In this document: positions 24,099-62,565 of the stretch, piece by piece
How positions within the stretch are numbered: position 1 is the first letter of the stretch
Layout: every line of letters begins with the position of its first letter
Source: Candidatus Entotheonellaceae bacterium
GTDB taxonomy: Bacteria > Tectomicrobia > Entotheonellia > Entotheonellales > Entotheonellaceae
Assembly (NCBI GenBank): GCA_965238075.1
Contig: OZ250173.1
Location: 2,112,001 to 2,176,000 of the forward strand
DNA length: 64,000 bases
Direction: 5' to 3'
Translations under genes and position numbers: made by a program
The notes under the pieces: generated by a model
What the model saw: the letters and a program-made list of their open reading frames with translations, nothing else
What the model was told of the DNA's origin: nothing
Database searches by the model: none

Positions 24099-24120
24099 GG
24101 GTGCTCCCTCGCTCCGCTGA

Positions 24121-25749: not shown

Positions 25750-25858
25750 GTAAGGGTTGCCCCGCAGCGCTTGTGACCCGGAGGGGAAAAGATCGGGCGC
25801 AACCTTACCGTGCTTTGGGGGCATCGTCAACACTGCCGGGGACCTTTCAAACCGGCGT

Positions 25859-34894: not shown

Positions 34895-34958
34895 CGCCTG
34901 GAGAACGCGTACCGCGCATGCGGCCCTGATGAAATGGCTCCAACGCAAGGAGAGCTTC

Positions 34959-35261: not shown

Positions 35262-35328
35262 GGGAGGGCTTAGGGAGGGGGCGATGCGCCGGCAGAAGTG
35301 AAGGGGCATTTGAAACTGAGCCACTACC
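35129..35328. mobile_element. 200-bp non-autonomous element (MITE)
   Basis: 19-bp terminal IRs GATAGTGGCTCAGTTTGAA / TTGAAACTGAGCCACTACC (2 mismatches); 8-bp direct repeat TCCGCTTC at 35121-35128 and 35329-35336. Confidence 0.85.
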
Positions 35329-44870: not shown

Positions 44871-47096
44871 ATGCGAGGTTACCGAGTCAACGACGCGCAA
44901 GGGCGGGCGGCAACGTGCCGGTCTCTGGCTCTGGCGTTCCTGGTTGGCCTGCTGCTGCTCGGCGTCGGCGCCGAAATCGTGCAGGCCGTGGAGGTGCCGC
45001 TGCCGACCAAGGAAGACATGGTGTACGGCGACTTCCCGGTCGTTGGCCGACGCGTCGCGATATGGGTCATCGCGCAATTACACCTGATGTTCGGCGCCTT
45101 CGTGGTCGGCGTGCCGTTGTTTATTCTGATTATCGAAATCCTGGGCGCCGCAACGAAGAACCAACAGTACGACGACTTGGCGCACGAATTCACCCGCCTC
45201 CTCAGTGTTGCCTTTTCCACCACCGCCATTTTCGGCGGTATCTTGGTGTTTTTCCTGATCGGTCTCTATCCCACCTTCACGAATTTCCTGGTCAGTATTT
45301 TCTTCCCCTCCATGGTGGTCTATGTCTTCCTGTTCTTCGGCGAAAGCTTCAGCATGTATCTCTACTACTTCGGCTGGGACGTCCTGAAAGGCACGTCGCG
45401 CAGCGTCGGGACGGTGATCGGCACGACGGCCCTGAGCGTGCTGGTGCTATACCCGGGGCTCCTGTTGCTGCTGGCGCTGCCGTCCCTGTTCATGGTTGGC
45501 GGCTGGGCGGTGAGTTTCCCGGTGTCGTACGGACTGGCCGGGGTCCTGTTCATCGCGCTGTTGGCGCACGGGTTGCGGCCAGGCAAGAGCAGTTTTGTTC
45601 AGAGCCGCAAATGGATGCATATCTGCTTCGGTATTCTGCTGAACTACTTCGGTCTGACCCTGATGATGATCGCTAACTCGTGGGCGACGTTCATGACGTC
45701 GCCGTCGGGGATCAATCTGGACGCCGGGGTGTTCCAGGGCACGACCTGGGACGCGATGCGCAACTTCACGTGGATGCCGGTCAACCTGCACCGGTTCATC
45801 GCCAATATCGCCTTTGGCGGCTCGATCGTGGCGGCGTATGCGGCGTTTCGCTTCCTGTCGTCGGCGCGCAATTCCCCCGAGCGGGCGCACTACGACTGGA
45901 TGGGGTACATCGGCAATTTCATCGCTCTGATCGGGCTGATCCCGCTGCCCTTCGCGGGCTACTGGCTGGGCCGGGAAATCTATGGCTACGATCAGCAGCT
46001 CGGCATCACCATGATGGGCGGCATCTTCTCCTGGCTGTTCATCCTGCAGGCGGTGCTGATCGGCGCTCTGTTTCTGGGCGCCAACTACTACCTGTGGCTG
46101 GGCATGGAGCGCATTCCGGGGTCGGAGCGCTACCGCAAGTTTACGCCTGTCATGCTCGGCGTGCTGACGGTTTGCTTCCTCGTGTGGCTGACGCCGCACA
46201 GCCTCGTGGCCAGCCTGGAAGAGGCCCGCAGGATGGGTGGGGCACACCACCCGATGCTCGGCGTCTTCGGGGTCATGTCGGCCAAGAACACCGTCGTCAA
46301 TCTGATGATTCTGACCACTTTCCTGAGTTTCCTGCTCTACCGCCGCGGCAACAAGGGTGAACGGCTTCCCTTTGCCCAGCAAAGCGGTGCGTCGAAAGTC
46401 GCGCTGATGATCGTGGCGGCCTTGGGGATTGTCCTCATGTGGCAACTCAGCGCGCCGCTTGCCGACCCGGCGCTGATGACCGGGCGCCTGCTGCTGTGGG
46501 GCTTCGAGACCCTGGCCGTGGTCGCTGCGGTGGCCCTCACCCTGAACGACCGCGGCACCCTGGGGCAGGGGCTGCTCTTTGCCATGTCGGCGCTGGTGGT
46601 GGTGTTTTACGGAATCTACGGCTACTACGTTGAAGCTATTGTGCGCATCGGTTTTTCCATCCTGCAGGTGTCATCGGTGCTGCTCGTGCTGCTGGTGGCG
46701 ACGACCATCGACATCGTGATCTTCCGCCGTGCGCCGCTCGTCGGCGAAATCAATTGGGGCCGGATTCCGGAGCGGTCGCAGTACGTCCTGTTCCTGCTTG
46801 CCACCTCGTTCACGTGGCTGATGGGCTTGATGGGCTACGCGCGTTCGGGCCTGCGCACGCACTGGCATATCTTCAACGTTATGCGGGATTACTCGTCGGA
46901 TGCCTTTACCCCGACGTTGGGTTATGCCTGCGGGGTGATTTCGATCATCGTGCTGGTGTTTATGCTCCTGGTGAGTTTCATTTTCTGGTTGGCCCATATG
47001 GGCTCGTTGGGGCATGCGCAGGAGGAAGCGGTGCTGCATGGAGCCCCGTCCCCGGTGTTGCAACCCGGCGGGGCAGCCGGCGGAGGCGCAGACTAG
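44871..47096 (+). CDS. Divergent cytochrome bd ubiquinol oxidase subunit I-like membrane protein
   Basis: AQLHLMFGAFVVG and NLHRFIANI match the CydA haem-His positions; ANSW..FM..P; GRQPW replaced by GLRTHW; many extra TM helices; no cydB in the window. Confidence 0.8.
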   Translation: MRGYRVNDAQGRAATCRSLALAFLVGLLLLGVGAEIVQAVEVPLPTKEDMVYGDFPVVGRRVAIWVIAQLHLMFGAFVVGVPLFILIIEILGAATKNQQYDDLAHEFTRLLSVAFSTTAIFGGILVFFLIGLYPTFTNFLVSIFFPSMVVYVFLFFGESFSMYLYYFGWDVLKGTSRSVGTVIGTTALSVLVLYPGLLLLLALPSLFMVGGWAVSFPVSYGLAGVLFIALLAHGLRPGKSSFVQSRKWMHICFGILLNYFGLTLMMIANSWATFMTSPSGINLDAGVFQGTTWDAMRNFTWMPVNLHRFIANIAFGGSIVAAYAAFRFLSSARNSPERAHYDWMGYIGNFIALIGLIPLPFAGYWLGREIYGYDQQLGITMMGGIFSWLFILQAVLIGALFLGANYYLWLGMERIPGSERYRKFTPVMLGVLTVCFLVWLTPHSLVASLEEARRMGGAHHPMLGVFGVMSAKNTVVNLMILTTFLSFLLYRRGNKGERLPFAQQSGASKVALMIVAALGIVLMWQLSAPLADPALMTGRLLLWGFETLAVVAAVALTLNDRGTLGQGLLFAMSALVVVFYGIYGYYVEAIVRIGFSILQVSSVLLVLLVATTIDIVIFRRAPLVGEINWGRIPERSQYVLFLLATSFTWLMGLMGYARSGLRTHWHIFNVMRDYSSDAFTPTLGYACGVISIIVLVFMLLVSFIFWLAHMGSLGHAQEEAVLHGAPSPVLQPGGAAGGGAD

Positions 47097-47108
47097 GAAA
47101 GCGGCGAC

Positions 47109-47945
47109 ATGTTGACATTTCTGAAAGTTATGGCGTTTAACGGTTTGGTAGTTCTGTTCTTCTGGTACGTCGGCAACAGTATTCCGCAGCAGCGGAAAGA
47201 CCCGCCCAAGGAGTCCACCCTGACGGCGGACATGGCGCCCGAGGTGTTCGTCGCGGCCGGGCAGGATATCTTTTACGGCAAGGGCACCTGCGCACTGTGT
47301 CACACGATTGGCGAGAAAGGCGAGCGCTGTCCGAATCTTGCCGGTATCGGCCAGCGGGCCGGCGCGCGGGTGGAAGAAGCCAGTTACCAGGGGGATGCGA
47401 GCAATGGCGCCGAGTACGTGGTGGAGTCGTTGCACAACCCGGCGGTGTACGTGGTGGACGGCTATCAGCCCACCATGCCCGCTATGGGGCGCCAGTTGAA
47501 CGATCTCGAAATAGTCGCCGTGGTTGCCTTTATGCAGTCGCTGGGTGGCGAAGTGACCGTAACGGGCGAGACGCTTTTTCCCAAGTACCGCGCCGACAGC
47601 GGTGCGGCGGTGGCCGCGGCGCCGGCCGCCGGGGCGGCCCCTGCAATGGTTGCGGCGTCGGGCGGCACGGGCTCGGAGTTGGTGGCGCAGTGGGGATGTA
47701 TCAGTTGCCACAGCCTGGACGCGCCGGTTCGCCTGGTCGGGCCCAGCCTGTGGGACATCGGGGCGCGCCAGGACGAGCACTTCATTCGTGAGTCCATTCT
47801 CAAGCCGGACGCCGTGGTGGCGGAGGGCTTCCCGCCGAGTTTGATGAAACTGACGTTGGATGGCCAGGGCTTTTACCAGAAGCTCGCCGTGCAGGACCTC
47901 AATACGCTGGTGGATTATTTGGCATCCCTCAAGGGCGGCCAGTAG
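47109..47945 (+). CDS. Membrane-anchored dihaem c-type cytochrome
   Basis: N-terminal TM; CALCH and CISCH with downstream Met (PTMP, SLM). Confidence 0.9.
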   Translation: MLTFLKVMAFNGLVVLFFWYVGNSIPQQRKDPPKESTLTADMAPEVFVAAGQDIFYGKGTCALCHTIGEKGERCPNLAGIGQRAGARVEEASYQGDASNGAEYVVESLHNPAVYVVDGYQPTMPAMGRQLNDLEIVAVVAFMQSLGGEVTVTGETLFPKYRADSGAAVAAAPAAGAAPAMVAASGGTGSELVAQWGCISCHSLDAPVRLVGPSLWDIGARQDEHFIRESILKPDAVVAEGFPPSLMKLTLDGQGFYQKLAVQDLNTLVDYLASLKGGQ

Positions 47946-47981
47946 GGCCGGGAATGGGTTCGACCCGGAATTGGAGCAACC

Positions 47982-48770
47982 ATGAGACGTGGATTGTCTA
48001 TTCACCTTAAATCGCTGCTCGTCCTCCTTGTGGCGCTGTTTGTCTTCAGCGTTGTGGTGCCCTTCGTTTCCGCACCGATCCCGGGACAACTTTATGGCTG
48101 GTACGTCATCACAACGCTGTTCGTGATCTTCCTCTACGTCTCCTCCAGCGAGGCGTCGCTGGAAGAATTCATGTTGCCGGTGCGCCAGCTCCTGTTGGCG
48201 CGTACGGCGTTGATGAAGCCGTTGCGCATCGTCGTGTTCATCGTCGTGCCGCTCGTCTGCGGCTGGTATTTCTCCACCTGGGCAGCGGGCGGCTCGGCGT
48301 CGCCGGGCGGTCAGCGGGTCATTCACCCGACGCCGCCTACGGCGGTCAATTTCCAGGGCAAACGCCTGGTGCTGCAGGATATTTCGATCAGCCCTGTTCG
48401 TGAGGATGCGGCGCATCTCGCCGAGCACATCGAGAAGGGCCGTATCGTGTATTACGAAAATTGCTTCTTCTGCCATGGCGACGCGCTGCAGGGCAAGGGG
48501 CATTTCGCCGAGGGATTCAATCCGTCTCCGGCGAATTTTCAGGACACTGGGACGATTGCACAGTTGTCGGAATCCTACCTGTTCTGGCGCATTGCCAAGG
48601 GCGGGCCGGGATTGCCGGGTGAATCGGCGCCGTGGGATTCAGCGATGCCGGTCTGGGAGGACTTCCTCACGGAAGAAGAAATCTGGCAGGTCATTGCTTA
48701 CCTGTATGACGCCACAGGACACGCACCGCGGGTCATGGACCACGGCGGCGGTGAAGGTGGCGGACACTAG
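47982..48770 (+). CDS. Membrane-bound monohaem c-type cytochrome
   Basis: Three N-terminal TM segments; CFFCHG; SAMP axial Met. Confidence 0.9.
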   Translation: MRRGLSIHLKSLLVLLVALFVFSVVVPFVSAPIPGQLYGWYVITTLFVIFLYVSSSEASLEEFMLPVRQLLLARTALMKPLRIVVFIVVPLVCGWYFSTWAAGGSASPGGQRVIHPTPPTAVNFQGKRLVLQDISISPVREDAAHLAEHIEKGRIVYYENCFFCHGDALQGKGHFAEGFNPSPANFQDTGTIAQLSESYLFWRIAKGGPGLPGESAPWDSAMPVWEDFLTEEEIWQVIAYLYDATGHAPRVMDHGGGEGGGH

Positions 48771-50405
48771 GTGCGAGGAGTGACGGTGAGCGAGCAACGG
48801 AAAACACGGGGTCGAAGCATAAGCGCGCTGGCATGCTGTATGGGGCTGTGCCTGTTGGCCGGCGTGGCGCTGCTGAACGCCCCCATGGTAAACGCCCAGC
48901 CCACGCAGGCGGACCTCGAAGCCGGTGAGCAGCTATACCTCCAGCGCTGCGCCCATTGTCACGGCACGGAAGGCGACGGCGTTGGCGCTTCGGCGGATGT
49001 CGTCTATCCCAAGCCGCGCGATTTCACCTCCGGCGTTTACAAGTTCCGTACCCACCATGAAACCGAAGACGGCAATCCGCTGGCCGCCGACGCCGACATC
49101 GCCCGCAGCATTCGAGAGGGGCTGCACGGCTCGTCGATGCCGGGATGGGAAGCGATTCTGAGCGGTCGGCAGATCGACCAGTTGGTGCACTACATCAAGA
49201 CGTTCGCCGAGGTGTTCGAGGAAGACGTGCCGGGGCCGGCACTCAGCTTTGCCAACGAGATTGCCTCGTCGCCGGAGAGCATTGCCAGGGGCAAGGAGAT
49301 TTTCGAGACCGTTTTCGAATGCCATACCTGCCACGGAACGGACGGCCGCGGCAACGGTCAGCAGGCCCTCGATGGCCTGGAAGATGATTGGGGTTATCGT
49401 ATCTGGCCGGCCAATCTGGCCAAGCCCTGGACGTACCGCGGCGGCAGCGGGCGGCGTGACATCTTCCGCAACATCGCCCTGGGCATTTTGGGCACGCCCA
49501 TGCCGGCCTTTGCCGACCCGGATCCGCTGGTCGAGGCCCGCGAGACGGATGACCCGGAAGAGAAACAAGAGATCGAAGCGCTGGCGCGGGAGTTGCGGGA
49601 GGACATCTGGCACACTGTGAACTACGTCCAATCCTTGTGGACCTACCCGCAGCAGCCCGAGGTCAAGGCGACGTTGACCGCCAAGCGGGTTGACGGCGCT
49701 CTGCCCATGAGTCCCGATGACGCGGCGTGGCAGGAGGCCCCGGTCAACTACTATCCGTTGGTTGGCCAGGTGATCCAGGAGCCGCGGCTGTTTGCCCCCA
49801 TGACCGTAGGCGTGGAACTCCAGGCCCTGCACAACGGCGAGGAAATTGCTTTTCGGCTGGTGTGGGACGACCGCACCGACAGCAAACCGGGAGAGAGCGA
49901 CGAGATGGAAACCTACGTGGATGCCATCGCCCTGCAGTTCTCTTCCAAGCCGCTGTCCGGTATGGAGAAGCCGTATTTCCTCATGGGCGGCGCGTCCTAT
50001 CCGACCGACCTGTGGTATTGGCGAAACGACCCCGGCGATGCGGTGCTGATTCAAACGCAGGGCGCCAGGTCATTTCAGGTCGGCGATAATGCCGGCGGGC
50101 TGGTCAGCCAGGGACAGTTGGACAACGGGCAATACCGCTTGGTGATCCAGCGGGCTTTGCAGACGGAGCAGACTGACACGGAAGTTCAGTTTCCAATCGG
50201 CGCCTTCATCCCGTTCAGCGTGACGGGGTGGGACGGCTCGAACGGCGAGTTCGGCGGCTACAAGCGGACGGTGATGGCCTGGTACAACCTGTACCTGGAG
50301 CCGGAGTCTTCGAAGGCGCCGCTCTATCTTTTGTTGGTCGGCATTGGCTTTGGATTGATCGTGGAATTCTCGGCGCTGTTTGTGACGCGAAAAAATCATG
50401 GCTGA
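48771..50405 (+). CDS. Dihaem cytochrome c fused to an ethylbenzene dehydrogenase gamma-like (haem b) domain
   Basis: Signal peptide; CAHCH, CHTCH; HNGEEIAFRLVWDD, DAIALQF, YFLMG, WDGSNGE...KR; C-terminal TM anchor. Start may be GTG 48786. Confidence 0.82.
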   Translation: MRGVTVSEQRKTRGRSISALACCMGLCLLAGVALLNAPMVNAQPTQADLEAGEQLYLQRCAHCHGTEGDGVGASADVVYPKPRDFTSGVYKFRTHHETEDGNPLAADADIARSIREGLHGSSMPGWEAILSGRQIDQLVHYIKTFAEVFEEDVPGPALSFANEIASSPESIARGKEIFETVFECHTCHGTDGRGNGQQALDGLEDDWGYRIWPANLAKPWTYRGGSGRRDIFRNIALGILGTPMPAFADPDPLVEARETDDPEEKQEIEALARELREDIWHTVNYVQSLWTYPQQPEVKATLTAKRVDGALPMSPDDAAWQEAPVNYYPLVGQVIQEPRLFAPMTVGVELQALHNGEEIAFRLVWDDRTDSKPGESDEMETYVDAIALQFSSKPLSGMEKPYFLMGGASYPTDLWYWRNDPGDAVLIQTQGARSFQVGDNAGGLVSQGQLDNGQYRLVIQRALQTEQTDTEVQFPIGAFIPFSVTGWDGSNGEFGGYKRTVMAWYNLYLEPESSKAPLYLLLVGIGFGLIVEFSALFVTRKNHG

Positions 50406-50431
50406 CCCTGTAAGACCCCGGAGGGAAATGA

Positions 50432-51241
50432 ATGCTTGAGCAGATTATCGAACTTATGAACCGGCTGAACGTCAACATGTTGCGTTGGCTGCCGGAGGCC
50501 GCCTCAACGTACGCGCTGGCAATCGACGAGGTCTTCTACATCATCTATATCATTACCGGGTTGGCGTTCCTGCTGGTGACGGTGGTGATGTTCTGGTTTC
50601 TCATCCAGTTCAAAGCCAGACCCGGACGCAGGGCGCGCTATTCGCACGGCTACGTGGTCCTGGAGCTGATCTGGACAATTGTCCCAACCATCGTGTTCCT
50701 GGGCATTTTCTTCTACAGTCAGTCCACCTGGTCCATCATCAAGTACCCCTCCACGTTTCCCGAAAGCAGCGTCCAGGTACGGGTCGTGGCCAAGCAGTTC
50801 GCCTGGGAGTTTCATTACCCCGGCCCGGACGGCGAATTCGACACCGAGGATGACAAGATGTTCGACGGCGACATGGTCGTGCCGGTGAACCAGGTCGTGG
50901 GCCTGACGCTGCGCGGCTCGGATGTGATTCACAGCTTTTTCGTGCCGGAGTTTCGCCTGAAGCAGGACATACTGCCGAGCCGGGACATCCCGGCGTGGTT
51001 TAATGCCACCAGGACCGGGCGATTTGAAACGCCCTGCGCCGAGTTGTGCGGTCCGGGGCATTCCGGCATGAAGGGGTGGGTGAACGTTTACAGTGATGCC
51101 GAGTATCAGGCCTGGGTTGCCGAGCAGTGGCCGGCGCCTGTGGATACCGGCGCAGGGGAAATGGGCCAAGAGGACATGCCGCAGGGCGACGTGGACCCAA
51201 TGGACCAAGAGGACAGTGGCCAGGCCGATACCGCGCAATAG
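50432..51241 (+). CDS. coxB: Cytochrome c oxidase subunit II
   Basis: LELIWT, QFAW, DVIHSF, CAELCGPGHSGM CuA motif; no fused cytochrome c. Confidence 0.95.
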   Translation: MLEQIIELMNRLNVNMLRWLPEAASTYALAIDEVFYIIYIITGLAFLLVTVVMFWFLIQFKARPGRRARYSHGYVVLELIWTIVPTIVFLGIFFYSQSTWSIIKYPSTFPESSVQVRVVAKQFAWEFHYPGPDGEFDTEDDKMFDGDMVVPVNQVVGLTLRGSDVIHSFFVPEFRLKQDILPSRDIPAWFNATRTGRFETPCAELCGPGHSGMKGWVNVYSDAEYQAWVAEQWPAPVDTGAGEMGQEDMPQGDVDPMDQEDSGQADTAQ

Positions 51242-51271
51242 CGTTTTTCGCACTTGTTGAAGGGGAGAGTC

Positions 51272-53056
51272 ATGAGTGAATCCAGCGCCGCCACGCACGC
51301 CGGGCATCACCGAGAGGGTTTTGTAAAGCATTATTTTTTCTCGCTCGATCACAAGATGATTGGTCGTCAGTTTCTCTTCACCGGCCTGTCCATGCTGGTC
51401 ATCGGCGGCCTGCTGGCCATGATGGTTCGCTGGCAGCTCGGCTATCCGGAAGAACCGTTGCCCTTCATGGGCGGTTTTTCCGAGGACTTCTGGGACGGCG
51501 AGTCGTGGTGGGCGCAGACCGCTCCCTACGGTATTGTGACGTCCGAGTTCTACAACACGCTGTTCACCATGCACGCCACCATCATGATCTTCTTCGTGGT
51601 CATGCCGATCATGATCGGCGGTTTCGGCAATTTCCTCGTTCCCATCTGCATCGGCGCCAAAGACATGGCGTTTCCGACGCTGAACATGCTGTCATACTGG
51701 ACCTTTGTGCCCGGCGTCCTCCTGATGCTCCTGTCGTTCTTCGTGCCCGGCGGCGCGGCGGGCGGCGGCTGGACCAGTTACGCCCCTCTGGCCGCAGTGC
51801 CGGATTACGCCGGCGTCGAGGGACACTGGGGCGTCACGCTGTGGTGCATCAGTCTGTTCATCATCGGCTTCTCCTCCCTGATGGGCTCCATCAACTACAT
51901 CACCACCATCATCAACATGCGGGCGCCGGGCATGCGCCTGTTCCGCATGCCGCTGACCATCTGGTCCCTGTTCATCGTCGCCATGCTGCTGCTGCTGGCC
52001 CTGCCGGTGCTGACCTCAGCCCTGGCCATGATGGTCTTCGACCGTATGTTCGGCACCCACTTCTTCATTCCCGACGGCGGCGGCGAGCCATTGTTGTGGC
52101 AACACCTGTTCTGGTTCTTCGGCCACCCCGAGGTGTACGTCCTGGTGCTGCCGGCCATGGGCGTGACCTCCGACGTGCTGTCCACCTTCGCCCGCAAGCC
52201 GATCTTCGGCTACCGCGCCATGGTCTACTCGATGTGCGCCATCGCCTTTCTGTCGTGGGTCGTCTGGGGCCATCACATGTTCCAGAGCGGCATGGACCCG
52301 GTGCTCGGCACCGCCTTCACGCTGACCACCATGCTGATCGCGGTGCCGTCGGCGATCAAGACGTTCAACTGGCTCGGCACCCTGTGGGGCAGTTCCATCC
52401 GGTTCACCACGGCCATGTGGTTCGCCCTCGGGTTCGTATCGCTGTTCACCATCGGCGGCCTCAGCGGCATCTTCATGGCGTCGACGCCGGTGGACATTTT
52501 CATCCACGATACCTACTACATCGTGGCCCACATTCACTACGTGGTGGCGGGGATCATTTTCGGCATCTTCGCCGGGTTGTACTTCTGGTTTCCGAAAATG
52601 TTCGGACGCATGATGAGCGAAACCCTGGGCAAGCTGCACTTCGTGCTCACCTTCGTGTTTTTCAACCTCACCTTCTTCCCCATGCACTTTCTCGGTGTCG
52701 GCGGCCACATGCGGCGCATTTACAACCCGACGCAGTATGAATTTCTGCAGCCGTGGCAGGAGATGAACACCTTCATCACGATGATGGCGCTTTGCCTGGG
52801 TGCCTCACAGATTTTCTTCGCGATCAACTTCATCGGCTCCCTGATCTGGGGCCGGCGCGCCGAAGATAACCCCTGGGAGGCCAACACGCTGGAGTGGGAT
52901 ACGCCCTCGCCGCCGCCGCATGGCAATTTCCTCGAGGATCCGGTGGTTTACCGCGGCGCCTACGAATACAGCTCGCCTGAGGTCGAGGAGGATTGGTTGC
53001 CGCAGAGCGTGTATCTGGAGCCAGCGGTGGCCGGGCCGGAGGAGGGTCACGATTAG
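51272..53056 (+). CDS. coxA: Cytochrome c oxidase subunit I, type A1
   Basis: DHK, TMHAT, GHPEVY, WGHHMF, HDTYYIVAHIHY, MRRIY. Confidence 0.97.
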   Translation: MSESSAATHAGHHREGFVKHYFFSLDHKMIGRQFLFTGLSMLVIGGLLAMMVRWQLGYPEEPLPFMGGFSEDFWDGESWWAQTAPYGIVTSEFYNTLFTMHATIMIFFVVMPIMIGGFGNFLVPICIGAKDMAFPTLNMLSYWTFVPGVLLMLLSFFVPGGAAGGGWTSYAPLAAVPDYAGVEGHWGVTLWCISLFIIGFSSLMGSINYITTIINMRAPGMRLFRMPLTIWSLFIVAMLLLLALPVLTSALAMMVFDRMFGTHFFIPDGGGEPLLWQHLFWFFGHPEVYVLVLPAMGVTSDVLSTFARKPIFGYRAMVYSMCAIAFLSWVVWGHHMFQSGMDPVLGTAFTLTTMLIAVPSAIKTFNWLGTLWGSSIRFTTAMWFALGFVSLFTIGGLSGIFMASTPVDIFIHDTYYIVAHIHYVVAGIIFGIFAGLYFWFPKMFGRMMSETLGKLHFVLTFVFFNLTFFPMHFLGVGGHMRRIYNPTQYEFLQPWQEMNTFITMMALCLGASQIFFAINFIGSLIWGRRAEDNPWEANTLEWDTPSPPPHGNFLEDPVVYRGAYEYSSPEVEEDWLPQSVYLEPAVAGPEEGHD

Positions 53057-54015
53057 TGTCTTCGTCGCCGACGCCGCTATGGGTGCACCGCTTGGCGGTG
53101 GCGCTGATGGTCGCCACGCTGCTGCTAATCGCCATCGGTGCCTCCGTTACCAGCACAGGCTCCGGGCTGGCGGTGCCCGATTGGCCGTTGTCCTTCGGGC
53201 AGGTATTCCCGCCGATGGTGGGCGGCGTGCTGTACGAGCACGGCCATCGCATGGCGGCGGCCGTGGTCGGCATGCTGACGGTTACCTTGATGGTCGTGAT
53301 GACCCGCTGGGAATCGCGGGCGTGGATGCAATGGATATCCCGCACTGCAGTGCTGGCGGTGGTATTGCAGGGGTTGCTCGGCGGCATCACGGTGCTGTGG
53401 CTATTGCCGACGGCGATATCGGTCAGCCACGCGTGTCTGGCGCAGGCGTTTCTTTGCCTGACCGTCACGCTTGCGGTGTGCACGGGGCCGAGTTGGCAAC
53501 AACGGTGGGCCAGTCGGGAGGAAGACTCGCAGCCGCGTCTGGTTGTGCTGGCGGGTGTCACCACGGGGATGATTTACGTGCAACTTATTCTGGGTGCCCT
53601 CATGCGGCACACCGGCGCCGGCTTGGCGATTCCCGATTTTCCGCTCGCCTTTGGCGGCTTGGTGCCGCCCTTGGATTCCCCGGCGGTGCTCATCCATTTC
53701 CTGCATCGCGTCGGCGCGTTGGCGGTGACGCTGTGCATCGCTTGGACCGTCTCGCGGGTCATTCGCCAGCACGCTGGCGAACGGCAATTGCTGCGGCCCG
53801 CGCTGACGTTGAGCGGTTTGCTGCTGGTGCAGCTCACGCTGGGGGCGCTGACCATCTGGACGCGCCGGGCGGTTCTGCCGGTCACCGCGCACGTGGCGGT
53901 GGGCGCAGCGGTTCTGGCGACAAGTCTGTTTCTCACCCTGCGAAGTTTGCACTTGCTGAACCTTCGTTTTGGGGCTCAAGAGCGGCATTTCTTGACTGAG
54001 CAGGTATCGGCATGA
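53056..54015 (+). CDS. ctaA: Haem A synthase (COX15/CtaA)
   Basis: GSGLAVPDWP, EHGHR, HACLAQ, HFLHR, TAHV; GTG start overlaps the coxA stop. Confidence 0.9.
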   Translation: MSSSPTPLWVHRLAVALMVATLLLIAIGASVTSTGSGLAVPDWPLSFGQVFPPMVGGVLYEHGHRMAAAVVGMLTVTLMVVMTRWESRAWMQWISRTAVLAVVLQGLLGGITVLWLLPTAISVSHACLAQAFLCLTVTLAVCTGPSWQQRWASREEDSQPRLVVLAGVTTGMIYVQLILGALMRHTGAGLAIPDFPLAFGGLVPPLDSPAVLIHFLHRVGALAVTLCIAWTVSRVIRQHAGERQLLRPALTLSGLLLVQLTLGALTIWTRRAVLPVTAHVAVGAAVLATSLFLTLRSLHLLNLRFGAQERHFLTEQVSA

Positions 54016-54923
54016 CAGGACTGCAACTGGCCACACCGCGCGTTGAAAGCACGCCCCTCGTCCACAAGGTGCGCGACTATCTGGTGCTCGCCAAGCCGCG
54101 TGTCGTGGTCATGGTGATGGCGGTGACGGCAGTGGGCTATTACCTGGGCGCGCTTGGCGCCCCGGACTGGTTGCGCCTGCTGCATCTCATGTTCGGAACG
54201 GCCTTGGCGGCGGGCGGCACCCTGGCCCTGAACGCTTATGTTGAGCGCACCGAGGACGCCTTGATGAGTCGCACGGAGTTGCGGCCCCTTCCGGACGGTC
54301 GCCTGGAACCAACAGCCGCTTTGCGTTTTGGTCTTGCCGCCGCCTTGATCGGTTGTTCTTATCTGTTGATCATGGTGCACCCACTTTGTGCCGCTCTCAT
54401 TGCGCTTACCACTCTGATCTACCTGTTCGGCTACACGCCGCTCAAACGCAGGACCTCCCTCTGTACGCTTGTCGGCGCCATTCCCGGCGCCTTGCCGCCC
54501 GTGGTCGGATGGGCCGCGGCGCGCGGCACGCTGGTGGGCGAGGTCTGGATCCTGTTCGCCATCCTGTTTCTGTGGCAACTGCCCCATTCGCTGGCCATTG
54601 CCTGGTTGTACCGTGAGGACTACACCCGCGCAGGGTTCCGTCTCCTGCCGGTGATTCACCCGGACGGCCGCAGCACGGGGCGCCACATCGTTATGAATAA
54701 TCTGGCCCTCCTGGCCGTCGGCCTGCTGCCGACTCTGGTCGGCCTCGCCGGCACCGTTTACTTTGTCGCTGCCTTTGTCCTGGGCCTGATGTTCCTGGGA
54801 TTCGGTCTCGAACTGGCGCTCGTCCGAACTACTGCCGCGGCACGGCGCCTGTTGCTGGCCTCACTGGTGTATCTGCCGGTGATGTTCTTGTTCATGGCAC
54901 TCGATAAAGTGCCGCAGTTTTAG
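54012..54923 (+). CDS. ctaB: Protoheme IX farnesyltransferase (haem O synthase)
   Basis: KPR, D.LMSRT..RPLP.G, YTPLKR, GAIPGALPP, WQLPH. Confidence 0.95.
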   Translation: MTGLQLATPRVESTPLVHKVRDYLVLAKPRVVVMVMAVTAVGYYLGALGAPDWLRLLHLMFGTALAAGGTLALNAYVERTEDALMSRTELRPLPDGRLEPTAALRFGLAAALIGCSYLLIMVHPLCAALIALTTLIYLFGYTPLKRRTSLCTLVGAIPGALPPVVGWAAARGTLVGEVWILFAILFLWQLPHSLAIAWLYREDYTRAGFRLLPVIHPDGRSTGRHIVMNNLALLAVGLLPTLVGLAGTVYFVAAFVLGLMFLGFGLELALVRTTAAARRLLLASLVYLPVMFLFMALDKVPQF

Positions 54924-54934
54924 CAGGTAGCGAG

Positions 54935-55042
54935 ATGGCTTCCGACACGAAACGGCAACAGAACCGCTGGACGGCGGGCGCCTTGGTGCTGCTCCTGCTG
55001 GCGTTGTTTGGGGTGGCTTTCAGCCTGATGTTGTCGCGTTGA
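54935..55042 (+). CDS. Small 35-aa single-pass membrane protein
   Basis: Below the ORF-track cutoff: MASDTKRQQNRWTAGALVLLLLALFGVAFSLMLSR; fills the ctaB-coxC gap in the operon direction. Confidence 0.6.
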   Translation: MASDTKRQQNRWTAGALVLLLLALFGVAFSLMLSR

Positions 55043-55078
55043 TGCAAAGGGTGTTCATCGTGTCCGAAGGGGGAAACG

Positions 55079-55786
55079 ATGGCCGAAGACATGTCCGCAA
55101 CCGCTACGCTGGAGCCTGCGCTCGAAGAGGTTGAATCGGACGTTCGCCCGCAGGGGCCGCCGCCGTTCTTTCCTGAGCCGCCCGGCGGCTCGGGGGGTGA
55201 TGACCGGTTTGGCGATGACGACGATCACGCCGGTCCGCCGTTAAGCAATGCCTACCTGGGGCTGCTGATCTTCCTGGGCGCCGAAACGATGTTCTTTGCC
55301 GGGCTGATTGGCTCGTTCCTGGTCTTTCGGGTGGCTCATGAGGTATGGCCGCCGGCAATGCTGCCGCGTTTGCCGGTGGGGGCTACGGGTGTCAACACGC
55401 TGATTCTGCTGGCCAGCGCCCTGACGATGCGGCGGGCGAAAATTGCAATCCGCAGCGGCGGACAGCGCGAGTCGGTCCGCATGCTCTTGGTCACCGCGGT
55501 GCTGGGCATCACGTTTCTCCTCGTGCAGGGATACGAGTGGCTCCGGCTACTGCAGTACGGGCTGACCTTGGCGTCGGGCGTTTACGGCGCCACGTTTTAC
55601 GTTCTGGTTGGGTGCCATGCCGTGCACGTGCTCGGCGCCGTCATCTGGCTGGTGAGCGTGTTGTGGTGGGCCGTGCGGCGCCGTTACACGGCCAAGGGTT
55701 ATACGGGTGTGGCGCTGTGCGCCATGTACTGGTATTACGTGGTGGCGTTATGGCCCATTCTTTACGGGCTGGTTTACCTGTATTGA
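55079..55786 (+). CDS. coxC: Cytochrome c oxidase subunit III (copy 1)
   Basis: FLGAETMFFAGL, NTLILLAS, QGYEW, FYVLVGCHAVHV, YWYYV. Confidence 0.9.
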   Translation: MAEDMSATATLEPALEEVESDVRPQGPPPFFPEPPGGSGGDDRFGDDDDHAGPPLSNAYLGLLIFLGAETMFFAGLIGSFLVFRVAHEVWPPAMLPRLPVGATGVNTLILLASALTMRRAKIAIRSGGQRESVRMLLVTAVLGITFLLVQGYEWLRLLQYGLTLASGVYGATFYVLVGCHAVHVLGAVIWLVSVLWWAVRRRYTAKGYTGVALCAMYWYYVVALWPILYGLVYLY

Positions 55787-55845
55787 TCACAGCGGTGGCG
55801 CTGGGGCCACCTGACATTCTCAGGATAGGGAGATAAACATTGCAG

Positions 55846-56115
55846 ATGCGCAGGCCAGTCAAACGGATTGTCGCAGTGATCGTGTTTGCGGCGGGGTTGC
55901 TGCCGGCACTGTCGCACGCTTGCAGCGTTTGCTGGGGAGCGGATGATGCCCTCGCGCATGGCCTGAACGTCAGCATTCTTTTTTTGATGTCGATGCCTTT
56001 CTTGATTGGCGGGTCGATTGTGGGTGTTCTGTTCGTCGCTCAGCGACAGCATAAGGGCCGGCGTCGGTCGATACTCGGAAGCCTCATCCCGATGCAGAAG
56101 GAGCGTGTAAAGTGA
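55846..56115 (+). CDS. Small exported/membrane protein with CxxC
   Basis: Signal peptide ending SHA-CSVCWG then one TM helix; overlaps the next gene (GTGA). Confidence 0.65.
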   Translation: MRRPVKRIVAVIVFAAGLLPALSHACSVCWGADDALAHGLNVSILFLMSMPFLIGGSIVGVLFVAQRQHKGRRRSILGSLIPMQKERVK

Positions 56116-56723
56116 GTGAAGCGGTTGCGATGCAGAACGAGTCTTATGAAACGCCTCTGACTCCCGAAAGTTGGGGCAAGCTCGGGATGTGGGTTTTTCT
56201 GGTTGGCGACGCCATGTCATTCGGGACGCTGCTGGCGGCTTACGGCGCCATGCGCTACAGCAGTGGCGACTGGCCCATTCCGGCTGACGTTCTCGGCGTT
56301 GCCTTATCGGGTTTCATGACCTTTCTGTTGATCTGCAGCAGCGTGACGATGGTGAAAGGGCTTGAGGCGGCGCAGAGGAACGATCTCGACGGCTTCCTGC
56401 GCTTCATCGGCCTCACCATCCTGAGCGGCGCGATCTTCCTGGGCTTGCAGGCTTATGAATGGACGCACTTCATCCACGGCGGCCTGGGATTCGCTAGCAA
56501 TCCCTGGGGCTCGCCGTTGTTTGGCACCACGTTTTACGTCATCACGGGCTTCCACGGCATGCACGTGACCGGTGGCGTCATCTATCTGTCGTGCATCTGG
56601 TTCAAGGGCCGCAACGGCGCCTATTGCGGCGAAAACGCTTCACACGTCGAAATTGCCGGGCTGTACTGGCACTTTGTGGATTTGGTGTGGATCATGGTTT
56701 TTACCTTCATATACCTGTTGTAG
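56112..56723 (+). CDS. coxC: Cytochrome c oxidase subunit III (copy 2)
   Basis: KLGMWVFLVGDAMSF, QAYEW, ITGFHGMHV, GLYWHFVDLVW. Confidence 0.92.
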   Translation: MSEAVAMQNESYETPLTPESWGKLGMWVFLVGDAMSFGTLLAAYGAMRYSSGDWPIPADVLGVALSGFMTFLLICSSVTMVKGLEAAQRNDLDGFLRFIGLTILSGAIFLGLQAYEWTHFIHGGLGFASNPWGSPLFGTTFYVITGFHGMHVTGGVIYLSCIWFKGRNGAYCGENASHVEIAGLYWHFVDLVWIMVFTFIYLL

Positions 56724-56745
56724 AACGGAGGAGGAGAGCAACAGC

Positions 56746-57069
56746 ATGGCCGAGCACCATCGGGCAACCAATTACTGGGCGGTGTGGGTATGGTTAGCCG
56801 TTCTCACCATTTTTGAAATCGGCGTTACGTTGATTCCGGAACTCGCGACGCTTTACAAAGCCATTCTGCTGGTCGCCTTGGCGGTGGGCAAAGCGTTTTT
56901 GGTGGCGCTGTACTTCATGCACCTACGCTTTGAAACGCGTACGCTGGGGGCAATCGTGTTGACCCCCTTTGTAATCTGTGTGTTTCTCGTTTTTATGCTG
57001 ATGCCCGATGTCGGTTTCGAGCCGCGCGAGTCGCCCATACGTGCGGAGCACGTGGAATCGGATCATTGA
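56746..57069 (+). CDS. Cytochrome c oxidase subunit IV (caa3/CtaF-like)
   Basis: Y..VW..L..LT..E, KAFLVALYFMHLRFE; GGAGGAG RBS. Confidence 0.88.
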   Translation: MAEHHRATNYWAVWVWLAVLTIFEIGVTLIPELATLYKAILLVALAVGKAFLVALYFMHLRFETRTLGAIVLTPFVICVFLVFMLMPDVGFEPRESPIRAEHVESDH

Positions 57070-57106
57070 TGCCCTGGGACGACGGCATTGAGCCCGGGCG
57101 GGAAAG

Positions 57107-57541
57107 GTGGCGGACGGATTCGTTATGGTCGCTCTATCGACTTGGCCGTTGTTGAACGCCGTCTTGAATGGCACCAGCGCCCTGCTCCTCAGCAGCGGTT
57201 TCGTCGCCATCCGTCGCCGCCGAATAGCGGTCCACAAAGCGTGCATGCTGACCGCCTGCGCGACGTCGGTTCTGTTTCTCGTGTCGTACCTGCTGTATCA
57301 CTATCAGGTCGGTTCTACGGCTTTTACCGGGCAGGGTACGATTCGGGTCGTGTACTTCACCGTGCTGATCTCGCACACCGTTCTCGCGGTGGTGATTGTG
57401 CCGCTGGTCATCATGACGCTGCACCGGGCGTGGCGGGAGCAGTGGCCGCGTCATCGGCGGCTGGCGCGTTGGACATTCCCCCTGTGGCTCTATGTATCCG
57501 TAACCGGTGTGGTCATCTACATCATGTTGTATCAACTGTAA
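57107..57541 (+). CDS. DUF420 (CtaM-like) membrane protein
   Basis: LNAVLNG, HKACM, LFLVSY, ISHTVLA, HRRLARWTFPLWLYVSVTG. Confidence 0.9.
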   Translation: MADGFVMVALSTWPLLNAVLNGTSALLLSSGFVAIRRRRIAVHKACMLTACATSVLFLVSYLLYHYQVGSTAFTGQGTIRVVYFTVLISHTVLAVVIVPLVIMTLHRAWREQWPRHRRLARWTFPLWLYVSVTGVVIYIMLYQL

Positions 57542-57595: not shown

Positions 57596-57937
57596 ATGAG
57601 ACGCCTTTGGAATCTCCTCGACGTTTTCTTCTTCGCTATTGTGATCCTGGCCTTGGCGATTTGGCAGTTCAAGCATGGCACCAGCGGCGAAATGATCGTT
57701 TCCGCGTTGGCGATTCTCGGCGGTATCGGCTTGCTGTTTACCGGTCGATGGGGTCTTGTGCTCACCTGCATCGCGCTGCTCTTGGCGATCGCGGTCTATT
57801 TCTGGCAGATGTGGTACCAGCCGATTATCGAGGAAGACATCAATCTGGTGCTGCCGAACGTCTGGAAGATGCTCGTCGCCATCGTCCTGTTCATCTACAT
57901 CGGCCGCGAACGTATTGACCACCGCATGGCCTCGTAG
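57596..57937 (+). CDS. Hypothetical membrane protein
   Basis: 113 aa, about four TM segments, GGAGGG RBS. Confidence 0.7.
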   Translation: MRRLWNLLDVFFFAIVILALAIWQFKHGTSGEMIVSALAILGGIGLLFTGRWGLVLTCIALLLAIAVYFWQMWYQPIIEEDINLVLPNVWKMLVAIVLFIYIGRERIDHRMAS

Positions 57938-57983
57938 GCGGGTCAGTGGTTGAGCGCCGGCAGGTCCCGGCTCGGTGGCCGGG

Positions 57984-58346
57984 ATGACGTTGAAGCGGGC
58001 GCTGGGACTGCTTGGCCGCGGCCTGCGGCTGCGTTGTCCGCGCTGTGGAGCCAAGACGCTCTTCCGCAAGGGCTTCGCCATGCATGAGCGCTGCCGTGTC
58101 TGCGCCTATCGCTTTGAGCGCGAGCAGGGTTACTTCGTCGGGGCGATGTACATCAATTACGGCGTCACGGTGCTCATCATCGTGGTCGGCTACTTCGCTC
58201 TGGAATGGTGGACGCCTATCACCCTGGCCCAGCAGCTCGCTTTGTGGTCCGGCGTCGGCATCATCCTGCCGGTGGCTTTCTTTCGGCAAGCGCGTGGATT
58301 GTGGTTGGGATTCGACTACATCTTCAATCCCGGCGAGGACGACTGA
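57984..58346 (+). CDS. DUF983 family protein
   Basis: CPRCG...LF, CRVC...E.E.GYFVGAMY, two TM segments. Confidence 0.85.
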   Translation: MTLKRALGLLGRGLRLRCPRCGAKTLFRKGFAMHERCRVCAYRFEREQGYFVGAMYINYGVTVLIIVVGYFALEWWTPITLAQQLALWSGVGIILPVAFFRQARGLWLGFDYIFNPGEDD

Positions 58347-58381
58347 TTCAAGCCCGCCGGGGGCGAACCACTGGAGCCGCC

Positions 58382-58912
58382 ATGTTCACGGGCGCCTTTG
58401 ACGTTCTCGTCTCCTTCCGGGTGCTGATTCTTTGCCTTCACGTGCTGGCCGTGTTGACCTGGGTCGGGGGTCTGGTCTACCAGGTCATCGTCGTCTTGCC
58501 GGTGGTTGGAAAAGGCATCGCCAGCGTCGCCTCGCTGCGCATCGGCTTGGGCTGCGAGGCGCGCTTCCGAGCCGTGATGTGGCCCGCGGTGGGTATTGCG
58601 CTGTTTACCGGATTGGTGAACCTGATGAACGTCTGGAACGGCCTGCGTCAGGTTGGCGCCAGCCTTCCGGCTGCTTTCGCGTCGCTACTGGTCATCAAGT
58701 TGCTGCTGGTTGCGGGCATGATCCTTTTGCAGGCTGGTCAGCAGTTCGTGGTGTATCCCAAACGCCTGGGCTTGATGGCTCAGGTGGCGCCGGACGCAGC
58801 GGTGCTTCCGGCCGATCTGGCGATCTGGCAACGCCGGGCATTCTGGCTGCATGTCGCCACGGTTTGTCTGGCTGTTCCGGCCATTTTGTGCGCCCTTCTG
58901 CTGCGCGGCTAG
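58382..58912 (+). CDS. CopD/DUF4149-like membrane protein
   Basis: LHVLAVLTWVGG, TG, LVIKLLLV; four TM segments. Confidence 0.65.
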   Translation: MFTGAFDVLVSFRVLILCLHVLAVLTWVGGLVYQVIVVLPVVGKGIASVASLRIGLGCEARFRAVMWPAVGIALFTGLVNLMNVWNGLRQVGASLPAAFASLLVIKLLLVAGMILLQAGQQFVVYPKRLGLMAQVAPDAAVLPADLAIWQRRAFWLHVATVCLAVPAILCALLLRG

Positions 58913-58936
58913 GGCTTGCGGCGGGCGCCTTTCGGC

Positions 58937-58966
58937 TTGACGCAAGCCGCGCCGGTTGCATACAAT
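58937..58966 (+). promoter_or_regulatory. Putative sigma70 promoter for the cytochrome c / USP genes
   Basis: TTGACG, 18-bp spacer, TACAAT. Confidence 0.5.
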
Positions 58967-59080
58967 GGCCCCGTTCTTTCATCCATTTACAATACCAGCC
59001 AAGTTTGCGTTACGTGGGGTAACACACGGCATTTGAGTGACCTGTCAGCGGGTACAGGGAGGAAAGGAGAAGTAGGAATC

Positions 59081-59698
59081 ATGCGAGTGTTAGTGGGGCT
59101 TATCTGTCTTGGCTTGTTCGTTCTTCCGGCACTGGCTGCCGATAAAATTGCCGAGCGGGTTGCCAAAATGGACATTTCAGAAGAACAACTGTTCGCAATC
59201 GGTGAGACGCTGTTCAACACGGAGGGCGCCAACACCTGCCTGAAGTGCCACGGCGCCGGCGGGCACGGCGGCGACCAGGCCGGCGCGGCCGACCTGCGGC
59301 ATCCGCGCACGTGGCGCTCTTATCAGGCCCTCGGCGGCGACGAAGCCTTTAACGCTGACAAGGACGCCTTTCTTGCCAATATGGCCACCGTCATCCACTT
59401 CCTCATCCGCGCGAGCGCCCCGATCTGGAACCTGCGCTTCGCCAAGTCCCACAAGGATATCGAGATGGATTGGTCGCAGGTGACCATCCCCGACAAGGTC
59501 GACAAGTACAACAGCATGATGAAGGGTATCACCTCCGGCCCGATGAAAAAGGCCCTGAAAGCCATGGCCAAGCAGTTCAAGGCCGACAACGGCACAAAGC
59601 TCAAATCAAAGGATCAGAAAGACGTGGCGGCCGTGGGCGCCTATTTGTATGTCCGCTCTTTCGATGATGGTAGCGACAAGGCCGGGGTGTTCAAATAA
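59081..59698 (+). CDS. Periplasmic monohaem c-type cytochrome
   Basis: Signal peptide (ALA-A), CLKCHG, Met- and Lys-rich C-terminal half. Confidence 0.85.
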   Translation: MRVLVGLICLGLFVLPALAADKIAERVAKMDISEEQLFAIGETLFNTEGANTCLKCHGAGGHGGDQAGAADLRHPRTWRSYQALGGDEAFNADKDAFLANMATVIHFLIRASAPIWNLRFAKSHKDIEMDWSQVTIPDKVDKYNSMMKGITSGPMKKALKAMAKQFKADNGTKLKSKDQKDVAAVGAYLYVRSFDDGSDKAGVFK

Positions 59699-59768
59699 CC
59701 GCTCGTCAGGGAAGCGTGTGTGAGGGCTTGGTGGTTGGTTGTTGGGAAGCTCAAACGAAGGAGAGGCG

Positions 59769-61592: not shown

Positions 61593-61668
61593 GACCGATC
61601 GGATTCCGTTATCGTTTCCTGTGAGGGGCATGGGCTTGCCATGCCCCTCACGTTCGTTTAGGAGCCTT

Positions 61669-62565
61669 ATGCCAAAGCGCTACCGGGACATCACCGGCGA
61701 CGGCGGCTCGAACATTGCTGGCCAAGTGTCGGCGCAGGCCGAGCGTCTCAAGGCCCGCATGGCCGGTGTTCGGCACACTATCGCGGTCATGAGCGGCAAG
61801 GGCGGCGTGGGCAAGAGCGCCATCACCACCAACTTGGCGGCGTACTTCGCCAGGGAAGGCTGGCGCGTTGGGGTCGTTGACGCGGACATCAACGGACCCT
61901 CGATCGCCAAGATGCTCGGTGTGCGCGGCCATTCGCTCAACCTCGACGCCGGCGGCGTTTTCCCGGCCCTCGGCCCCCTCGACATCCGCGTGATTTCCAT
62001 GGACCTCTTCCTGAAGGAAGATCAGACGCCGGTCGTCTGGGACGGCCCGCAAGCCGAGACCTTCGTCTGGCGCGGCACCATGGAAATGCACACCCTGCGC
62101 GAGTTTCTCGCCGATGTGCATTGGGGCGAACTGGATATTCTGCTTATCGACCTTCCCCCCGGCACCGACCGCTTGGCTACCCTCCACGACCTGCTGCCCG
62201 ACCTGCACGGCAGCGTCGTTGTGACCATTCCGTCGGCTGTTTCCCAGCTGATCGTCTCGAAGTCGATCACCATGGCGCGCGATCTCTTGCACACGCCTGT
62301 CATTGGCCTGGTGGAAAACATGACGGCCTACGTCTGCCCCACCTGCGGCGCCACGCACCCGCTTTTCGCCCCCCCGCCGCAGGCTGAGACGCTTGCCGGC
62401 GTGCCATTGCTGGGCCGCGTGCCCTTCGATCCCCGCATGGCGCTGGCCGGCGACAAGGGGGTGCCGTTCATCCTCGAAGACGCCACGTCCCCGGCTGCCC
62501 AAGCCCTCGCGCAGGTGGGGGAGGGCGTCCTGAACTTTGTCAACTCCGGGAGTCCCGTATCATGA
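61669..62565 (+). CDS. Mrp/NBP35 (ApbC) Fe-S cluster carrier ATPase
   Basis: SGKGGVGKS, DADINGPS, DLPPGT, GLVENM, CPTCG; start at ATG 61669 after AGGAG. Confidence 0.9.
   Translation: MPKRYRDITGDGGSNIAGQVSAQAERLKARMAGVRHTIAVMSGKGGVGKSAITTNLAAYFAREGWRVGVVDADINGPSIAKMLGVRGHSLNLDAGGVFPALGPLDIRVISMDLFLKEDQTPVVWDGPQAETFVWRGTMEMHTLREFLADVHWGELDILLIDLPPGTDRLATLHDLLPDLHGSVVVTIPSAVSQLIVSKSITMARDLLHTPVIGLVENMTAYVCPTCGATHPLFAPPPQAETLAGVPLLGRVPFDPRMALAGDKGVPFILEDATSPAAQALAQVGEGVLNFVNSGSPVS

Follow-up and report, generated by a model that had tools for sequence, protein, structure and literature searches.

OR-N has been described as a class of the CydA superfamily that keeps His19 and has lost the quinol site; its N1 and N2 members have 14 helices, and the operon of an N2 gene frequently contains no other cydA-like gene (Murali, Gennis, and Hemp, bioRxiv 10.1101/2021.01.16.426971). 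Elsewhere these proteins are treated as unconfirmed cytochrome c-oxidizing O2 reductases (PMC10839748, PMC12342949), and in the open-access literature we found neither an assay nor a structure of any OR-N protein, nor an account from Tectomicrobia of the operon considered here. That operon lies in a 64,000-nucleotide stretch (the window) of the genome of a Candidatus Entotheonellaceae bacterium (contig OZ250173.1, positions 2,112,001 to 2,176,000), where a bd-like membrane subunit and three cytochromes c (cyt-1, cyt-2, and cyt-3) stand at the head of the genes for a full aa3 oxidase. The four genes match an OR-N-type module, probably OR-N2 as judged from published descriptions rather than the authors' reference set. 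The module itself is known; its arrangement with aa3, and with a haem domain common to complex III, is new.

Closely similar sets of genes, in which a bd-like protein accompanies two c-type cytochromes and an NxrC-like haem b/c protein, are bd-like_3/alt_NxrC_2 of Nitrospira (PMC6606698), the nxr cluster of Nitrospina and Kuenenia (PMC3578206), and TO_1 of Manganitrophus (bioRxiv 10.1101/2021.11.15.468770). A sequence-only reading of the window had already pointed to bd-like proteins and haem b/c subunits in nitrite oxidizer genomes, and the composition is indeed that of the Nitrospira and Nitrospina clusters. A role like that of alternative complex III (ACIII) was proposed for the Nitrospina/Kuenenia cluster (PMC3578206), and ACIII-like or reverse-flow roles are discussed in both PMC3578206 and PMC6606698. 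Whether OR-N acts as an oxidase or as a quinone-linked electron gate is central to the bioenergetics of nitrite oxidizers, anammox bacteria, and manganese oxidizers. In the present case, the module is found without nitrite oxidoreductase and next to an aa3 oxidase whose CoxB has no fused cytochrome c (c-less below). We tentatively read it, at somewhat under an even chance, as a cytochrome c-fed O2 sink on a membrane-anchored haem wire, with the wire also feeding CuA of aa3 in parallel with a Rieske/cytochrome b complex.

Gene order at the locus

The module and oxidase genes are as follows, with the basis of each assignment in parentheses.

44871..47096, +, OR-N-type bd-like membrane subunit, 741 aa (Pfam, alignments, structure model)
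47109..47945, +, cyt-1, membrane-anchored dihaem cytochrome c, Kustd1711 homologue (PDB 7ZS0, E 4e-28; alignment)
47658..47939, +, distal haem domain of cyt-1 (52/93 identical to the C-terminal domain of complex III cytochrome c)
47982..48770, +, cyt-2, monohaem cytochrome c with two to three N-terminal membrane helices, candidate membrane partner of the bd-like subunit (family match, complex prediction)
48771..50405, +, cyt-3, dihaem cytochrome c fused to an NxrC/EbdC-like haem b domain, C-terminal anchor, "alternative NxrC" type (family match)
50432..51241, +, CoxB with full CuA motif, without fused cytochrome c (family match, motif reading)
51272..53056, +, CoxA, A1 type, likely start at 51272 (family match, residue reading)
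53056..54015, +, CtaA haem A synthase, likely starting with a GTG that overlaps the coxA stop (family match)
54012..54923, +, CtaB haem O synthase (family match)
54935..55042, +, 35-codon single-helix open reading frame (ORF) between ctaB and coxC-1, possible small oxidase subunit (ORF list, conservation)
55079..55786, +, CoxC-1, subunit III-like (family match)
55840..56115, +, 91-codon ORF between the two coxC genes, with a signal-like helix, CxxC, and one membrane helix (conservation)
56112..56723, +, CoxC-2, subunit III-like (family match)
56746..57069, +, subunit IV, caa3 type (family match)
57107..57541, +, DUF420 membrane protein (family match)

The source genome (G000; comparison loci and genomes are labeled L0xx and G0xx) is a single contig of 3.35 Mb with 62% GC and is 93% complete; among named organisms, its nearest homologues come from Tectomicrobia/Entotheonella. 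The genes named in the sequence-only reading lie where it had placed them and belong to the families it gave (ORF list, Pfam and profile matches): the cytochromes have two, one, and two CxxCH motifs, five in total, the third has an EB_dh/EbdC-like domain, and coxB (without CxxCH), coxA, ctaA, ctaB, the two coxC genes, subunit IV, and DUF420 all match as expected. That gene list overlooked the two small conserved ORFs at 54935-55042 and 55840-56115. The tight spacing it remarked on was borne out, with gaps of 12, 36, 0, and 26 nt from the bd-like gene up to coxB, 30 nt before the likely coxA start (ATG, 51272), and overlaps thereafter; the exception is 53 nt after coxC-1. Closely packed genes on the same strand run beyond DUF420 to 63062.

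Of 30 related loci, 25 have the four module genes in the same order or grouped together, and four of the other five stop at a contig edge; hence, the grouping is not due to chance. A scan of the stretch for promoters and terminators stayed at chance level (3 versus 4.9 and 22 versus 19.0, respectively). Contigs from RNA were considered as evidence for co-transcription and set aside: among 14 RNA runs from four studies that contain the stretch, contigs of four runs were examined, and cyt-3 and coxB were bridged in all four, but convergent and divergent genes of a control region were bridged too.

The bd-like subunit

The match of the 741-aa protein to PF01654 is partial (E 7e-12), and its gene is the sole CydA-like gene of the genome. 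A structure model built from 112 homologues (predicted local distance difference test [pLDDT] of 90.7) has the CydA fold over residues 53-715, with Z scores of 32-35.5 and root-mean-square deviations of 3.1-4.2 over 339-365 aligned residues in ten CydA chains; ActC/ActF, the next-best fold family, reached Z scores of 18-22. All 84 bd-like homologue rows of a tree fell apart from three canonical CydA sequences. The clusters of four of these homologues are named Nitrospira, Nitrospirae, Nitrospinae, or Nitrospinaceae, and none is labeled N1 or N2. At L021, L022, and L027, each cluster has two divergent bd-like paralogues, resembling the published OR-N1/OR-N2 pairs.

Aligned to solved CydA, H71 is equivalent to His19 of E. 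coli, Y151 to Glu99, E158 to Glu107, H250 to His126, and H307 to His186. We take His186 and Met393 to be the ligands of haem b558, and the roles of His126 and Glu445 are likewise those assumed in this analysis. Two haem-ligand His positions had been described as kept; H71 and H307 are conserved in 107 and 109 of the 112 homologues, respectively, alongside E158 (101), H250 (111), M469 (102), H460 of the GAHHP motif (101), R662 (104), and H666 (105), although about one-third of the homologues are close relatives at >70% identity and such counts therefore overstate independence. Around 90 further positions in the alignment are near-invariant. The GRQPW motif, described as lost, is altered, but a remnant is kept as R662-T-H-W665-H666 (R662xxW665H666).

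The assignment of M469 is less direct. In one of four hhalign runs it was placed at Met393, while the other runs put residues 589-596 there. Three homologues that bear Glu445 lack both H460 and helices 562-617, and their M469 helix directly precedes the last two helices; these sequences fix the register of Glu445 and suggest M469 as the equivalent of Met393, which by alignment we consider likely. The haems themselves are placed in the subunit provisionally, by residue equivalents.

Sixteen hydrophobic segments are seen by hydropathy, and extra inserted helices at residues ~179-235 and 506-558 form two hairpins that are missing from shorter homologues. His19, Glu99, Glu107, Lys252, and Glu257 have been named as key CydA residues (Murali et al., bioRxiv 10.1101/2021.01.16.426971), and the quinol site of canonical bd is described in PMC13189123. 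In the alignment and the model, the subunit has no equivalents of the Q-loop residues Lys252 and Glu257; in the model, helix VI is followed by further membrane helices, in agreement with published accounts of OR-N, and this region could not be aligned with KLAAFE of canonical CydA. The statement that there is no cognate cydB also holds, with no PF02322 match in the source genome, a single contig at 93% completeness. Among the 30 module-bearing genomes, PF02322 was above cut-off in three, each time adjoining a separate canonical cydA.

The cytochromes, complex III, and aa3

The closest solved relative of cyt-1 is Kustd1711 of the anammox nxr cluster (PDB 7ZS0, E 4e-28 over residues 3-255), in which His/Met haems near +350 mV are tuned by backbone-bound Ca (PMC11791136). 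In the alignment, cyt-1 keeps both Met ligands, and an Ala/Pro-rich linker joins its two domains. At L093 (1075-4221, minus strand), the bd-like subunit and a Kustd1711-like homologue of cyt-1 form one 1,049-aa frame, seen in a single genome and in the assembly only. For the bd-like subunit and cyt-2, complex prediction gave a score of 0.52, compared to 0.00 for the best of three controls, with a contact agreement between runs of at least 46% and a partner pLDDT of at least 73. Of 157 solved pairs, 116 attained the mark, as did 2 of 215 mismatched pairs; those that attained it with a score no higher than 0.60 comprise only 18 of the 157 and both mismatches, and the prediction thus lends weak support to such a complex. 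In cyt-3, a dihaem domain like 6H5L_B (which we take to be Kustc0457) is joined to an NxrC/EbdC-like domain with solved relatives in NxrC (7B04_C) and EbdC (2IVF_C), and the Met and Lys ligand positions are kept. A link of the module to nitrite oxidoreductase was rejected, as G000 has no above-cut-off type II dimethyl sulfoxide (DMSO)-reductase alpha subunit.

The distal domain of cyt-1 is 56% identical (52/93) to the C-terminal domain of the complex III cytochrome c encoded 1 Mb away in the same genome (G000:C1:3116190-3117509). This paralogue was found in 11 of 14 genomes of the family, as one copy in six and two copies in five; the three genomes without it are 62-82% complete, and two of the three gave no cytochrome b match. 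Complex III cytochromes examined from two other families gave no such paralogue. A tree of 74 rows and 101 columns unites the Tectomicrobia cyt-1 domains with all 16 complex III domains in a single clade (100/89); the deeper forks of the tree are poorly resolved, and it gives no direction of copying. Within the complex III cytochrome c (G000, L053-L064), close relatives have one copy of the domain and larger genomes have two, one of which is inserted inside the preceding haem domain.

The wider family of this domain includes known or proposed donors to CuA. It matches the haem domain of caa3 subunit II (1W2L, E 1e-9) and the N-terminal domain of ActA of ACIII (6BTM_A 33-143, E 6e-5), and it also includes the haem domain of a caa3 CoxB in L051. 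Judged by its position, the matched part of ActA is the mobile domain that has been proposed to carry electrons to aa3 (PMC8552683). The simplest reading would be that the distal domain of the module and the terminal domain of complex III both pass electrons to CuA of the c-less CoxB. Net charge was compared for docking of the distal domain to CoxB and was negative in all four domains, which is uninformative.

The oxidase of the operon is of the A1 type: CoxA has GHPEVY, the D- and K-channel residues, and the metal-ligand histidines, and the CuA motif, CtaA, and CtaB agree with an A1-type aa3. Among the 25 loci with a full module, cox genes follow in 15 and are missing in 8, and 2 loci end early. 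By record titles, the 15 comprise 10 Tectomicrobia-like loci, 1 from Nitrospinota, 2 from Gemmatimonadota, 1 from Elusimicrobiota, and 1 from Chloroflexota. In a set of 17 genomes chosen by phylum, which overlaps the 30 loci and is not independent of them, 16 have the bd-like gene and 13 of these have coxB within ~6 kb of the module. The CuA motif could be read in 14 of the 15 module-linked CoxB proteins, and none of these 14 has CxxCH after it; in the fifteenth (L029, 251 aa), the motif deviates. The CoxB proteins counted here are the module-linked ones; at L030, a caa3-type CoxB is encoded apart, on the opposite strand, and in G042, coxB lies on a different contig from the module. The earlier suggestion that the module is wired to aa3 thus gains indirect support from its conserved linkage to c-less CoxB and from a haem domain that is common to complex III and belongs to a family of CuA donors; because of these features, we regard such wiring as plausible.

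The two small ORFs differ in their reach. The 35-codon ORF is 91-97% identical in five close loci and was undetected in distant ones, whereas the 91-codon ORF is conserved, down to 45%, in cox-linked loci of several phyla and falls in unnamed Atlas clusters at 0.93; with its CxxC and membrane helix, it is a candidate copper or assembly factor. In five distant loci (L023, L029, L030, L031, and L032), a cupredoxin-like gene (His...Cys-x-x-His-x-x-Met) stands between cyt-3 and coxB. It is missing at the G000 locus, and a similar gene is found instead near the cbb3 genes (C1:1513358-1514143).

That leaves the proposal, made in the sequence-only reading, that the module is a substitute for complex III. 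As had been noted, the window has no bc1 genes. However, the genome encodes a Rieske protein, cytochrome b in split form, and a cytochrome c with five haems (C1:3113738-3117509), as well as a cbb3 oxidase and a 787-aa qNOR-like COX1-family gene. There is no ActB, ActC, or ActD in the operon and no ActD in the genome, and the two NrfD matches in G000 belong to other clusters. Across the 30 module-bearing genomes, which are drafts found by close peptide patterns, many of them related and of completeness not given, cytochrome b is above cut-off in 24, and ActD is present in three of the five tested among the other six; COX1-family genes are found in 29. The anticorrelation with bc1 or ACIII that a substitute implies is therefore absent, and we reject replacement of complex III, given the Rieske/cytochrome b complex in this genome and most others with the module. 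As for the quinone, MqnA and MqnD of the futalosine route gave no match in G000, and one of its three UbiA-family genes is ctaB.

Proposed electron routes, neighboring genes, and known systems

We imagine that electrons, supplied by periplasmic donors or by the pool of cytochrome c, would enter at cyt-3 and cyt-2 and move on to cyt-1, the high-potential dihaem protein. An inward branch from cyt-1 would lead through the His307/Met469 haem to the His71 haem, the presumed site of O2 reduction, with protons arriving from the cytoplasm via Glu158/His250, and an outward branch would pass from the distal domain of cyt-1 to CuA of the neighboring aa3 oxidase. More speculatively, Tyr151 in the distal pocket might serve as a proton or electron source in place of the lost Glu445-ligated haem. 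A branched wire with two sinks is proposed because the shared domain argues for outward flow, while the His19/Glu107/His126 core and the missing Q-loop argue for an O2-type sink. By established bd chemistry, a cytoplasmic proton path to a haem on the periplasmic side would suit O2 reduction and would conserve no energy in a quinol-to-cytochrome c reaction.

Several observations weigh against an O2 sink on a shared wire. The Glu99 position is Tyr151, with Tyr in 107 of the 112 homologues, and from the alignment this residue might provide a sixth ligand and so keep O2 from binding; a haem ligand is also lost, the Glu445 position being S659 (Ser in 96 of 112 and Glu in 3). Without CydB, the O2 channel from that subunit is missing, and the host, with aa3 and cbb3, would gain a redundant oxidase. 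The eight loci without cox genes mean that aa3 is not an obligatory partner. No entry partner for cyt-3 was evident in G000, where the best match to the type II DMSO-reductase alpha subunit scored 124 bits versus a cut-off of 985. CuA has a potential of about +250 mV; if cyt-1 were near +350 mV, transfer to CuA would be uphill, and the Ca binding concerned is via backbone atoms and unreadable from sequence. The distal domain, an exit by position in complex III, favors outward flow from the module. Finally, the cluster is carried by an anaerobe, Kuenenia (PMC3578206).

A rival to this reading is a quinol:cytochrome c oxidoreductase that has a non-canonical quinone site and feeds aa3 via cyt-1 beside the Rieske/cytochrome b complex, running in reverse in nitrite oxidizers and anammox bacteria, which we find doubtful. 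The exit-type haem domain, the c-less CoxB in the operon, a likely intact His307/Met469 entry haem, the loss of both Glu99 and Glu445, the occurrence in an anaerobe, and published proposals of ACIII-like or reverse-flow roles (PMC3578206, PMC6606698) are all consistent with it. It has to contend with the missing equivalents of Lys252 and Glu257, with cytochrome b being present in 24 of the 30 module genomes and ACIII in three others, with a match to ActC/ActF that is weaker than that to CydA, and with a Glu107/His126-type proton path that would be directed wrongly for energy conservation. One can envision, with as much doubt, a bolder version, in which the bd-like protein would be no oxidase and would represent, on a CydA scaffold with a distal Tyr, no Glu445, and additional His460 and His666, a third type of quinol:cytochrome c oxidoreductase that joins the c-less aa3 in a supercomplex; copies of one haem domain would then connect both the module and the Rieske/cytochrome b complex of Entotheonellaceae to the same CuA.

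Conversely, the module might be a self-contained OR-N oxidase that is merely co-located or co-regulated with cox, the shared domain reflecting docking to complex III or domain shuffling, with no transfer from the module to CuA. The 8 of 25 loci without cox, the G042 coxB on another contig, the view of OR-N in print as cytochrome c-oxidizing O2 reductases (PMC10839748, PMC12342949), and the fact that outside Tectomicrobia and Nitrospinota the USP/Mrp genes described below accompany the module more often than cox does (9 versus 4 of 14 loci) speak for this; yet the linkage is repeated in several phyla with a c-less CoxB each time, the caa3 CoxB of L030 is encoded apart, and the distal domain belongs to a family of CuA donors, and we think it unlikely. 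Quite improbable, in our judgment, is a module that collects electrons of periplasmic dehydrogenases for aa3, with a bd-like subunit that has lost O2 chemistry and serves as an anchor, an electron buffer, or a reducer of another acceptor, such as nitric oxide or peroxide. The near-invariant His71, Glu158, His250, and His307 and the ~90 others imply catalysis over anchoring, no periplasmic partner emerged from the type II DMSO-reductase alpha search in G000, and a separate 787-aa qNOR-like gene is already present, even though the domains of cyt-3 partner periplasmic enzymes elsewhere (7B04_C, 2IVF_C, 6H5L_B), many small periplasmic cytochromes c are encoded in the genome, and Glu99 and Glu445 are replaced by Tyr and Ser. 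The distal Tyr and the missing Glu445 are concrete residues that bear on bd-like function, and the haem domain common to complex III is a small, soluble, expressible handle on the direction of electron flow.

Downstream of DUF420, the closely packed genes continue as follows.

57596..59698, +, 113-aa membrane protein, DUF983, CopD-like protein, and a further monohaem cytochrome c (family match)
59739..63062, +, accessory trio: tandem USP-PCP_red-rubredoxin protein, Mrp/ApbC Fe-S carrier, and Cys-rich PCP_red protein (family match, neighborhood)

The trio accompanies the module in many phyla, including at loci without cox. Of 14 loci that do not belong to the Tectomicrobia/Nitrospinota group, 9 have the USP protein no more than 10 kb from the module, and an orthologue is present in 26 of the 30 genomes, all of which were chosen as module bearing; the trio is possibly made up of maturation or regulation factors of the module. 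Elsewhere in the genome (C1:3329840-3337513), tetrahaem cytochromes, Fe-S proteins, and NrfD proteins occur with SoxY/SoxZ-like, Rieske-like, and flavocytochrome c-like genes, named by inspection, a possible sulfur oxidation module and electron source. The window also contains an NAD-linked formate dehydrogenase-like pair on the minus strand (21252-25833), with molybdopterin and NuoE/F-like subunits, and an island (30514-41285) with a type III restriction-like helicase, a UvrD-like helicase, and two DNA methylase fragments with an IS5-type transposase pair (36365-37196) between them.

The locus can finally be set beside the systems described. In keeping His19, lacking the quinol site and CydB, having at least about 14 helices, and belonging to an operon with alternative carriers (cytochrome c/haem b), it is like OR-N; unlike the OR-N description, it has extra inserted helices and heads a full A1 aa3 operon in a host of heterotroph type. 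It differs from the Nitrospira, Nitrospina, Kuenenia, and Manganitrophus clusters in that G000 has no nitrite oxidoreductase-type alpha subunit and the module is joined to cox genes. Like Kustd1711 (7ZS0; PMC11791136), cyt-1 has an N-terminal anchor or signal and two class I His/Met haem domains, but it has no "nose" insertion and its distal domain is duplicated onto complex III. The ACIII-aa3 supercomplex of Flavobacterium johnsoniae (6BTM; PMC8552683) and the caa3 oxidases offer the parallel of a tethered monohaem domain of the same family, proposed as the electron carrier to aa3, whereas the present operon has no ActB, ActC, or ActD and its membrane subunit resembles CydA, and the genome lacks ActD and encodes a Rieske/cytochrome b complex. 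Compared to canonical bd (qOR) of E. coli and Geobacillus, CydB and the Q-loop are missing, and Glu99 and Glu445 are replaced by Tyr and Ser, but the nine-helix CydA fold, His19, Glu107, His126, His186, and RxxW are those of the canonical enzyme.

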